A stretch of 63,873 nucleotides of DNA, counting the filler, from Acidimicrobiia bacterium (GTDB taxonomy: Bacteria; Actinomycetota; Acidimicrobiia; Spongiisociales; SHLN01), in assembly GCA_041619515.1 (NCBI GenBank). It is 3 parts of 3 records of this genome, joined end to end, with 100 filler letters (N's around TTAATTAATTAA, not from the genome) between each part and the next. Parts side by side here need not be neighbours in the genome. Positions count along the whole stretch, not along the records: positions 1 to 23,071 come from JBFKDW010000047.1; 2 more parts are not named here. One strand, given 5' to 3'. The position numbers and the translations under genes were made by a program. The notes beneath the pieces are model-generated. The model saw nothing but the letters and a program-made list of their open reading frames with translations. It searched no databases and was not told the DNA's origin. Position 1 is the first letter of the stretch. Each line of letters starts with the position of its first letter. Positions 12,013-45,483 of the stretch are shown in pieces.

Positions 12013-13101
12013 GTGCATAGAACGTTCGCTGCTGTGGTGGTCGCCGCTGCCCTCGTGTTGGCCGCGTGCGGCGGTGGGTCGACGGCCACTACTCCCTCCG
12101 GCTTGAACCCGTCCACGACCACGGCGTCCCCCAACCCGGCGACGTCCAGCACCTCGACCCCGGCCCCCACGACTGCTCCGGAGCCGGCCACGAGCACGAC
12201 AACGCCGGCCACCACCACGACGACTACGACCTCTGTGCTCCCCGAGCCCGACCCCGTGACGGCGCTGCCGCCGCTTCCCGACGGGCGGCCGCGTACCTTT
12301 CTGGCGGTGACGAGCGATTTCGAGGCCGTCGAGGTCGACACTGTCACCGGCGCGGTGGTCCGCAGCATCGGCCAGGCCGGCACGCGTGCCGAGCTGGAGG
12401 CAGCCGAGGTGGCAGCAGCCGTCAACGTCATCGACCAGGTGTGGCGCACCATCGACGGATCGCTCACGGTGGTCAGTGAATGCTGCGAACCGGCCGCCGG
12501 AGCCATCCATGTGCTGGGGGCCGGCGACCAGTTCTCTGCCGACGCTCAGACCATCGCCGGATGGGGGATCGGAGCGGCCCCGAGAACGGCCGAGTTCGCC
12601 ATCGTCGGCTATTCCCTGGAGGTGGGGACCCCCGAGCGCTGGCGGATCTCACACTTTCTCGACCCTGCGATCGAAGGCTTCCCCAGCGGATCACCGGGGT
12701 GGAGTCGGGACGGCCGGTACGTCTACTGGTGGTCTGAGTCCGCCGGTGGCGCAGAGTCCACATGGAGTTTGGCGACCCTCGACCTCACGTCCGGCGACGT
12801 GTCCACCTTGGTGCTCGACTGGGTGCCCCAGGACTCACGTCTCACCGGCGTCGCCATCCGGGCATCCGGGGAGCTGGTATCGATCCTGACGACCGATGCC
12901 TTCACGACCACCGAGGGCATCGTGGCCACCCCGGCCGGGGACCTCGTGGAGAGGTTTGCCATCGAGGACGGCTCCGTTCTCGGCAACTACGACCCATCCG
13001 GCACCCATCTCATCTACGTCGACGGTGAGGGAACGGTGCGCTGGACCGACGGATCGACCTCCGGCATCCTCGGCGCCGGGTACGTGTTCGCCAGCTGGTG
13101 A
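12013..13101 (+). CDS. Lipoprotein with Thr/Pro-rich linker and beta-propeller-like C-terminus
   Basis: Signal peptide with lipobox LAAC, poly-Thr tract, WSRDG/YDPSG repeats. Confidence 0.7.
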   Translation: MHRTFAAVVVAAALVLAACGGGSTATTPSGLNPSTTTASPNPATSSTSTPAPTTAPEPATSTTTPATTTTTTTSVLPEPDPVTALPPLPDGRPRTFLAVTSDFEAVEVDTVTGAVVRSIGQAGTRAELEAAEVAAAVNVIDQVWRTIDGSLTVVSECCEPAAGAIHVLGAGDQFSADAQTIAGWGIGAAPRTAEFAIVGYSLEVGTPERWRISHFLDPAIEGFPSGSPGWSRDGRYVYWWSESAGGAESTWSLATLDLTSGDVSTLVLDWVPQDSRLTGVAIRASGELVSILTTDAFTTTEGIVATPAGDLVERFAIEDGSVLGNYDPSGTHLIYVDGEGTVRWTDGSTSGILGAGYVFASW

Positions 13102-13170
13102 GGCCCGGCCTCCGGATCTGCCGGGTCTGAGCTAAAGTCTTCTCACCAGAGAAAGGAGGTGGTCCGAAGA

Positions 13171-13212
13171 ATGACAGGTTTATCGAGGACTCTGGAGGTG
13201 GCCGGGCGCTAA
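13171..13212 (+). CDS. Small ORF MTGLSRTLEVAGR within the structured RNA
   Basis: ATG 13171 to TAA 13212, preceded by AGAAAGGAGGTG. Confidence 0.5.
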   Translation: MTGLSRTLEVAGR

Positions 13213-13348
13213 GCCAGCCATCGAAAGGAGAGCTGGCTTTCCCTTGCGGGACAGGTAGCGACTCCAAACCCGGACCACCGATTCTCTGAGACCCGTGAGT
13301 TGGTCCTCTCACGGCGGCAGATGCCCTGCCGAAGGATCTCGAGTCTTA

Positions 13349-13382
13349 CGAAGACCCCGCCTCCCACGAGGCGGGGTCTTCG
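13349..13382 (+). terminator. Intrinsic terminator-like hairpin
   Basis: CGAAGACCCCGCCT-cccacg-AGGCGGGGTCTTCG, perfect 14-bp stem. Confidence 0.75.
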
Positions 13383-15024: not shown

Positions 15025-15058
15025 GACATGTGACGTGTGCTCGACCTCAGGAGGGCCG

Positions 15059-15502
15059 ATGGTCGCCACAACCGCCCGTACCGCCTGCTTTGCACCGAGG
15101 AATCCCGCCAGGCTCGCTGACCTTCTGCTGTCCCGCCGAGAGTTGGTGACGCGGTCCGCTGGAGCGTTGCGGGGCGAGGTGGCCGATGCGATGAGCCAGC
15201 GGGACCTCAGTGACCTGTTCGATCACGAAGATCCGTCGGCGGATCCCACCAACCCGCGTCTCTGGGAGGTAGAGGAGGCGCTGGCTCGGGTCGCCGACGG
15301 CACGCACGGGTACTGCGCCGACTGTGGTATCGGTATCCCGTTGGCGCGGCTCAGGGTATTGCCAGCCACGGCTCGGTGTGTCGGATGCAGACGCCGGTAT
15401 CACTTGGCCGGCACCCTCGACGAGGACGGCATGCGATCCACCAAGTCACAGGGTCGATCACTGGTTGGATCCGGGACATCGGTACGGAGGGATGAGCGAT
15501 GA
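15059..15502 (+). CDS. TraR/DksA-type C4 zinc finger protein
   Basis: ALARVADGTHGYCADCGIGIPLARLRVLPATARCVGC; AGGAGG RBS. Confidence 0.8.
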   Translation: MVATTARTACFAPRNPARLADLLLSRRELVTRSAGALRGEVADAMSQRDLSDLFDHEDPSADPTNPRLWEVEEALARVADGTHGYCADCGIGIPLARLRVLPATARCVGCRRRYHLAGTLDEDGMRSTKSQGRSLVGSGTSVRRDER

Positions 15503-15849
15503 GGGTGTATTACGGTTTTGAGGTGAGGCAGCGGGGCTGGCTTTTGGATGAGCGCGACCGGCTGAGGGATCTGCTCGTGAAGTTGCGGGCCGCGGCTCGC
15601 TCTGATTTCGAGAACCACGACAGCACGGATGACGAATCCGCCAGCCAGGCCGACGCGATCGAAGGCCGACTCGCTTCCATCGATGAGGCCCTCAACCGGA
15701 TCACCTCGGACTGTTACGGCTTGTGCCAGATATGTGGATTGGCCATTCCCATCGGGCGGCTCCGGTCCCTTCCCGCCACGGCGGTGTGCCGGGATTGCGT
15801 GGGCCTGCAACGTGTGGTGGGTTCGGCCGTAGGGCCGGTGTCGTCGTGA
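15499..15849 (+). CDS. TraR/DksA-type C4 zinc finger protein (second paralog)
   Basis: ALNRITSDCYGLCQICGLAIPIGRLRSLPATAVCRDC; ATGA overlap. Confidence 0.8.
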   Translation: MRVYYGFEVRQRGWLLDERDRLRDLLVKLRAAARSDFENHDSTDDESASQADAIEGRLASIDEALNRITSDCYGLCQICGLAIPIGRLRSLPATAVCRDCVGLQRVVGSAVGPVSS

Positions 15850-23071: not shown

Positions 23072-23171
23072 NNNNNNNNNNNNNNNNNNNNNNNNNNNNN
23101 NNNNNNNNNNNNNNNTTAATTAATTAANNNNNNNNNNNNNNNNNNNNNNNNNNNNNNNNNNNNNNNNNNNN
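23072..23171. other. Assembly gap or contig linker
   Basis: 100-nt N block with central TTAATTAATTAA. Confidence 0.98.
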
Positions 23172-45383: not shown

Positions 45384-45483
45384 NNNNNNNNNNNNNNNNN
45401 NNNNNNNNNNNNNNNNNNNNNNNNNNNTTAATTAATTAANNNNNNNNNNNNNNNNNNNNNNNNNNNNNNNNNNNNNNNNNNNN
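45384..45483. other. Assembly gap or contig linker
   Basis: 100-nt N block with central TTAATTAATTAA. Confidence 0.98.

Follow-up and report, generated by a model that had tools for sequence, protein, structure and literature searches.

What is the small RNA encoded in the gap upstream of a methyltransferase gene in an Acidimicrobiia bacterium (assembly GCA_041619515.1), and what would it do to a ribosome? The locus lies at 13133-13382 of the window, the whole 63,873-nt stretch of DNA analysed here. The window consists of several stitched pieces, of which only 1-23071 is on contig C47 (N runs occupy 23072-23171 and 45384-45483). Following the GTDB lineage of the source genome, order refers here to Spongiisociales, class to Acidimicrobiia and phylum to Actinomycetota. 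The original prediction proposed a novel RNA with a 16-nt leader complementary to 16S rRNA, a 13-codon open reading frame (ORF) and a fold-back burying its Shine-Dalgarno (SD) sequence. We found that the element is a real stand-alone RNA gene of ~240 nt, but it is not novel. It is a divergent homolog of Ms_IGR-5 (RF02471), an Actinobacteria small RNA (sRNA) in Rfam first reported from Mycobacterium smegmatis, and resembles in kind the rre mRNAs already described. Covariation shows a conserved fold in which the extended SD sequence (SD1) and the start codon lie open in a loop, followed by a pseudoknot and two helices over the 3' half of the ORF. The features of the element, all on the + strand, are as follows.

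13133-13138, +: -10 element TAAAGT, placed by homolog comparison; no -35 element was found.
13146-13150, +: P1-related segment; two P1 pairs are the top pairs by mutual information with average product correction (MI-APC).
13150-13165, +: SD1, the extended SD, a 16-nt complement of the 16S 3' tail with one G-U pair (sequence match, a 16-nt run against the tail).
13171-13212, +: 13-codon ORF encoding MTGLSRTLEVAGR, with its stop codon; the first half is AU-rich and variable, the second RNA-constrained.
13186-13190, +: pseudoknot strand AGGAC within the ORF, pairing with 13303-13307 (covariation).
13194-13200, +: SD2, GGAGGUG, ending 8 nt before the last sense codon (conservation, spacing).
13197-13206, +: P2 5' strand, pairing with 13269-13279 (A13274 bulged); 95% of cells paired, two-sided changes at 7/10 pairs.
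13207-13211, +: P3 5' strand including the stop codon, pairing with 13256-13260; 90% of cells paired, two-sided changes at 5/5 pairs.
13212-13251, +: variable domain with P4 (13213-13218/13232-13237) and P4b (13240-13243/13248-13251); column counts are weak (54% and 65%) and the alignment poor.
13261-13268, +: conserved single-stranded linker, ACUCC here, AAUCC commonest (homolog comparison).
13269-13279, +: P2 3' strand, an internal anti-SD copy, GGACCACC, which by duplex energies may also bury SD1 in the order.
13280-13345, +: 3' domain, with P5 closing P6 (13293-13299/13308-13314) and P7 (13315-13320/13326-13331) (covariation).
13349-13382, +: terminal hairpin of 15 bp without a U-tract (fold prediction).

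The TAAAGT motif, the 16-nt SD, the ORF and the strands of the fold-back and pseudoknot are all where the original prediction had placed them; its terminal hairpin is present and has 15 bp, not 14.

The genome's own assembly contains no 16S 3' end, and the tail GGAUCACCUCCUUUCU was read in 12/12 order loci examined, including one same-genus genome. SD1 forms a predicted duplex of -27.8 kcal/mol with this tail and its 16-nt match is the longest among the ~8,700 SD-like sites of the genome, well beyond a normal SD as had been claimed. To follow this and other features, we aligned 100 homologs chosen for diversity, 19 counted as order members and 81 others, the latter retrieved with a pattern in which GAGGT was obligatory; the set excludes the frame-broken order member L005 and six variants that lack the pseudoknot strand. 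All 100 carry a complementary run of 15-19 nt, a 12-nt core of which was part of the search pattern. The AUG starts 5 nt past the run in the window copy and 1-6 nt past it among the homologs. The second SD-like motif, SD2, is invariant in 29/29 order sequences found without requiring it, and its predicted duplex with the 16S tail is -16.0 kcal/mol. The stop codon falls exactly five codons after the GAG in 100/100 chosen homologs. The 8 nt between SD2 and the last codon is the ordinary SD-to-P-site spacing for a ribosome positioned at the stop.

The reading frame is itself under selection. A canonical start codon lies 1-6 nt past the SD in the ORF frame in 80/100 homologs (the other two frames give 3 and 0); the remaining 20 have near-cognate starts only. 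Stop codons in the linker number 0 in the ORF frame, compared with 68 and 18 in the other two. ORF length is held at 12-15 codons and the EVAxR end first noticed in the window copy is conserved, with E-V the only invariant residues, always encoded GAG GTG/GTA. Other positions vary with their pairing partners; the codon before T, for example, is AGG, GGG, CGG or TGG. Since residues track RNA pairing and the first half varies, selection acts on translation and largely not on the peptide. Compared with shuffles, AGU (41 vs 7.9), UCU (22 vs 8.2) and CAU (21 vs 7.6) are enriched among the linker codons, in relatives that are non-independent, and the window ORF includes UUA, the rarest codon in this genome. 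No entry for the small ORF was found in 12/13 supplement files of PMC4633059 or three of PMC9094748, using search terms that may not fit these ribosome profiling tables.

The window RNA folds with a z-score of -6.3, equalled in 0/200 shuffles. Over five helices, 91% of cells are paired and 26/32 pairs have two-sided changes, a result as high in 0/500 shuffles. The counts for P1, P2, P3 and P6 lean to the model because those helices were in it; the pseudoknot was not. P1 and P2 also covary in a plain MAFFT alignment, and RNAalifold unaided predicts P2, P3 and the pseudoknot helix. The top two P1 pairs (MI-APC z 22) are paired in 100/100 homologs with 54 and 57 two-sided changes, and close a loop of 34-45 nt. 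The pseudoknot (MI-APC z 7.5) has an exact 4-nt partner in the hairpin loop in 93/100 homologs, 12 of these being compensatory variants of four kinds; four of the exceptions carry the partner but failed the loop test and three mismatch. This partner sits in the loop of P6, where 7/7 pairs show two-sided changes. Pairing is 82% in P7, 79% in inner P5 and 38-61% in outer P5, which is poorly aligned. Between the start codon and the structured block lie 14-23 nt, which places the block close to the front edge of a ribosome at initiation. The pseudoknot suggested by the original prediction is thus real, and its CCGTGAG/CTCACGG and CGGCAG/CTGCCG helices are backed by covariation. The three best-supported helices, P1, P2 and P3, were absent from it, and its TGGAG/CTCCA helix has a pairing probability of 0 and overlaps the covarying P1. 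The broader view of a conserved, folded RNA of ~240 nt appears sound, and the complementarity of SD1 to the 16S tail suggests that it is built to engage the ribosome.

Homology with Ms_IGR-5 was established in both directions. Against RF02471 the window copy scores 26.8 bits (E 8.5e-4), a match that does not reach the gathering cut-off of 45; the same model matches the same locus in 23/41 relatives, passing the cut-off in 2/41 (both unpublished genomes), with a third at 44.4 bits. Conversely R1, a covariance model built from 29 order-only sequences, scores 6/6 loci passing the RF02471 cut-off (20 loci scanned) at 26.4-54.7 bits. The element shares with Ms_IGR-5 the extended SD, a short ORF ending EVxxx-stop, P1/P2/P3 and the pseudoknot. 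It differs in that its ORF has 13 codons and not 12, its 3' domain is three-way and SD1 has a perfect internal complement of 8 nt. The Rfam structure line for Ms_IGR-5 pairs the SD with the ORF end and so differs from the covarying fold. We found no function for Ms_IGR-5 in the papers searched, nor any paper that connects it with rre mRNAs or reports its ORF or its pseudoknot, in a search that most subscription journals fell outside.

A pattern of SD plus start codon gave matches in 35/41 related genomes; the 30 loci it returned comprised 27 homologs, one being the window itself, and three chance matches. R1 finds the element in 110/121 order genomes and 86/89 high-quality ones, nearly always as a single copy (two copies in three genomes), and no paralogs were found in the window's own genome. 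Class-wide, R1 finds the element in 68/121 genomes, with losses mainly among small genomes: family f81 had it in 0/12 genomes (the sizes listed are ~1.1 Mb), and several genomes of 1.8-2.5 Mb also gave no match. A stricter pattern matches 111/301 phylum genomes, some by chance. The tallies for relatives, order and phylum include the unpublished genomes G017 and G028 (and seven more in the phylum tally), none of which is in any alignment. Seven further loci (L035, L038, L094, L123, L130, L133 and L141) share the extended SD, and in each the stop falls exactly five codons past the GAG; the record titles of L035, L038 and L094 name Thermodesulfobacteriota, Ignavibacteria and Terriglobales, respectively. 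R1 scores the seven at 16-47 bits, except L130 at 13.9. The family probably reaches beyond Actinomycetota.

The closest functional parallel is rreB. The available part of its description (Hahn et al., RNA Biol 2016, PMC5711450) presents it as an mRNA of 165 nt whose SD spans 17 nt and whose ORF encodes 14 aa; it co-sediments with 30S subunits and is weakly translated. Mutation of its start codon stabilises it from 10 to 37 min, and it leaves a stable 60-nt ORF fragment off ribosomes. No function is known for it there, and Alphaproteobacteria are the only rre hosts named in that part. Like the rre mRNAs as described there, our element is a small stand-alone mRNA with a long 16S-tail complement (16-17 nt), a short ORF (14-18 codons in rre) and a weak start. 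The rre mark of at least 16 nt of 16S complement before a short ORF is present, at 16 nt with one G-U, the published rre complements being perfect. In the same account the rre complement runs into a GUG start, whereas here the start is 1-6 nt further on, and the rre SD is predicted to be mostly buried, whereas the conserved fold here leaves it open. Among loci assigned to rreR by the published description, as far as it was available, R1 scored L034 at 15.6 and L101 at 13.5 bits and gave no match at E<=0.1 to L040, L087 and L140. The element is best described as a divergent Ms_IGR-5 homolog that would work like rre mRNAs, with rre membership by descent unproven.

Transfer-messenger RNA (tmRNA) engages ribosomes and has a short internal ORF with pseudoknotted structure on either side; the element resembles it in having a short ORF amid such structure. 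It has its own SD and start codon, unlike tmRNA, and lacks a tRNA-like domain; ARAGORN finds no tmRNA here, which agrees with the original prediction, and one tmRNA gene elsewhere in the genome. CC2171 (RF01867), a Caulobacter sRNA, likewise has an extended SD followed by a start codon, but the match scores 19.8 bits against a cut-off of 75 and is limited to the SD and terminal hairpin.

The SD-burying fold-back of the original prediction is the minimum-energy fold in the window copy (-123.7 vs -114.9 kcal/mol, without pseudoknot energy), but shows no convincing covariation (paired fraction 81.3% vs 80.8% in shuffles). SD sequestration is not the conserved fold, and the SD is kept open across the phylum. 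The burying helix is the minimum-energy fold in 16/19 order members and only 10/81 others. Within the order its 8-bp core is near-invariant and the A bulged in P2 is also kept (19/19), whilst the CAGAGAA/TTCTCTG extension is paired in just 66% and 28% of cells. The P2 3' strand forms predicted duplexes of -18.7 kcal/mol with SD1 and -19.2 with the ORF in the 19 order members, compared with -9.9 and -16.5 in the 81 others. A second alternative duplex, 13227-13235 with 13256-13265, is possible in 19/19 order members (-9.7 to -19.7 kcal/mol). When the footprint of a ribosome at the stop codon is masked, SD1 is predicted to pair with the 3' strand in 17/19 order members. Together these folding predictions make a two-state fold plausible within the order.

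As to transcription, the conserved position of the -10 element favours a promoter of its own. YAnnnT occurs upstream of AGGAGG in 77/100 homologs and in 14/100 in a control window, at a distance of 19-22 nt in 73 homologs and 21 nt in the window copy, suggesting a start near A13145. Scans of the region called no sigma-70-like or terminator-like site. The 15-bp terminal hairpin is likely the terminator, a role assigned from its predicted fold. Ms_IGR-5 is reported as transcribed and capped with nicotinamide adenine dinucleotide in M. smegmatis in the available parts of 10.1101/2021.12.14.472595 and PMC10454040, and as validated by RNA-seq in S. lividans in that of PMC8079986. Passages of the literature did not confirm scr4389 as the Streptomyces homolog. 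Related sequence covers 13162-13320 in contigs from 4/4 metatranscriptome runs examined (4 studies; 22 runs listed), weak evidence of expression; contigs cannot give ends, strand or level. No RNA contigs in these metatranscriptomes came from the flanking genes, an absence given no weight since these genes are non-conserved.

Neighbouring genes differ in family and orientation among relatives (105 ORFs scanned). The element occupies the whole space between the methyltransferase gene and its own upstream neighbour, an unannotated 362-aa ORF (12013-13101), Thr/Pro-rich and lipoprotein-like with no Pfam match, which separates it from leuS. In six close relatives (L017-L020, L023, L024) leuS is itself the divergent upstream neighbour, and the 362-aa gene therefore looks inserted. 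Genes for Cys/Met-metabolism or PALP-family enzymes often adjoin the element in either orientation (L003, L008, L009, L025, L026, L048, L185, L186, L187), an adjacency that is probably the ancestral gene order. A tRNA-Sec gene (L048:623-714) lies ~780 nt upstream of one homolog, and a tandem gene pair, each with a DksA/TraR zinc finger, occupies 15035-15849 of the window.

What, then, does the RNA do? On balance we lean towards a translated mini-mRNA that catches and holds ribosomes, at initiation and then at termination, the product being the RNA-ribosome complex and not the peptide. Covariation shows that in the folded RNA the P1-closed loop leaves SD1, the start codon and the next 4-6 AU-rich codons unpaired, with the pseudoknot, P1, P2 and P3 locking the remaining ORF. 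Judging from complementarity and rreB, a 30S subunit would dock via a duplex of 16 bp that takes up the whole free 16S tail, and would initiate weakly, the structured block lying at the mRNA entry site. A ribosome that escaped would unwind the core and be re-anchored at the stop by SD2, and so dwell at termination. In the order only, the freed 3' anti-SD strand might then fold onto SD1 and block reloading. Such an RNA would have roughly one ribosome bound at any moment, and its turnover would follow translation; we infer that it most likely serves to keep a small reserve of intact, free ribosomes or to gauge them. This reading is supported by single copy, stable inheritance, varied neighbours, the conserved -10 position, covariation, frame selection, the fixed SD2-stop spacing, the predicted SD1 re-pairing in 17/19 order members, the behaviour of rreB and the transcription of actinobacterial homologs.

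Several observations count against it. The element is dispensable, since many small class genomes lack a detectable copy, and six shorter variants (L044, L136, L236, L237, L238, L259) have neither the pseudoknot strand nor the five-codon spacing. The SD1 re-closure step shows no covariation, and in the calculation that masks a ribosome at the stop codon only 26/81 non-order members are predicted to pair SD1 with the 3' strand. With the initiation footprint masked, P2 exceeds 0.5 in only 8/19 order members and 49/81 others (no pseudoknot energy). No ribosome-binding or translation data for any actinobacterial member were found in the literature searched, and kinship by descent with rre is unproven because rreR-like loci score at most 15.6 bits. 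Finally, in the available part of PMC5711450 rreB is far scarcer than ribosomes and 20-fold overexpression has no effect on growth. This makes bulk ribosome storage doubtful and weakens the 30S sponge of the original prediction.

Other explanations draw on much of the same evidence. The element could be a protective cap or clamp that stores idle 30S or 70S particles, pairs the whole 16S tail and shields it from RNase R, with P1 perhaps closing the RNA around the 30S neck. The SD1 duplex does span the whole free tail, the open segment of 32-39 nt approximates one initiation footprint, and the element was not found in the streamlined ~1.1 Mb genomes (0/12, family f81). The part of PMC10901742 available describes in vitro protection of 30S against RNase R by an SD oligonucleotide. 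We nevertheless think a cap unlikely, as it would need no open frame and no fixed stop, and the low copy number of rreB relative to ribosomes, in the same part of PMC5711450, speaks against it. If instead the peptide were the functional product, with SD and structure merely rationing its synthesis, the strong selection on the frame and the enriched linker codons (with the same caveat of non-independence) would be explained, and RreB and RreR are conserved within their own clades (PMC5711450). The invariance of E-V alone, the change of other residues with pairing partners, the length of 12-15 codons, the 20/100 homologs with near-cognate starts only and the broken frame of L005 leave this a slim prospect.

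A slim chance of the same order attaches to a trans-acting sRNA or protein-binding RNA gated by ribosome occupancy, in which translation unfolds the RNA or triggers its decay and so exposes a strand that acts elsewhere. The conserved unpaired AAUCC/ACUCC linker, whose partner is not known, the two-state fold in the order and the stable off-ribosome fragment of rreB (PMC5711450, in the part available) would fit, but most conserved bases are accounted for by 16S or internal pairing. A 5'-3' fold-back burying the SD is typical of type I toxin mRNAs. The similar fold-back here, the rare codons in the ORF and the same-strand methyltransferase gene might suggest a type I toxin mRNA, a CreT-like RNA toxin or a cis-acting attenuator of the downstream gene. 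This group is largely refuted and has very little probability left: the peptides are polar and not the hydrophobic membrane peptides of such toxins (GRAVY, the grand average of hydropathicity, mean -0.42, maximum 0.93, n=100), as the original prediction argued, and no conserved rare-codon pair follows the start in the 100 homologs. The gene is a single chromosomal copy; of 117 viral pattern matches, 80 were examined as loci with the same two motifs and 0/80 were homologs by R1 (E<=0.001). The genes downstream belong to different families and are often oriented towards the element. Bolder, and rather unlikely, is an RNA-based ribosome protection factor that pairs the entire 16S tail, clamps the 30S neck via P1 and the pseudoknot and, once a round of translation is over, retains its ribosome through SD2 at the stop. 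This RNA would be the actinobacterial representative of a multi-phylum class of which rreB, rreR, CC2171 and Ms_IGR-5 are separately catalogued pieces.

Ms_IGR-5 was already known as a catalogued, unexplained family, and the element is not categorically new. What is new is the covariation-backed fold, the evidence for a translated frame, the fixed SD2-stop spacing and a plausible order-specific second state. An RNA kept in single copy across much of the phylum, with the longest 16S-tail match of its genome, has had no function assigned to it. Ms_IGR-5 is reclassified by these results from an sRNA to a translated, pseudoknotted mini-mRNA, and its covariation-backed fold yields exact mutational predictions. 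The role of rre-type RNAs thereby becomes testable in M. smegmatis and in Streptomyces, where a homolog is known to be transcribed.
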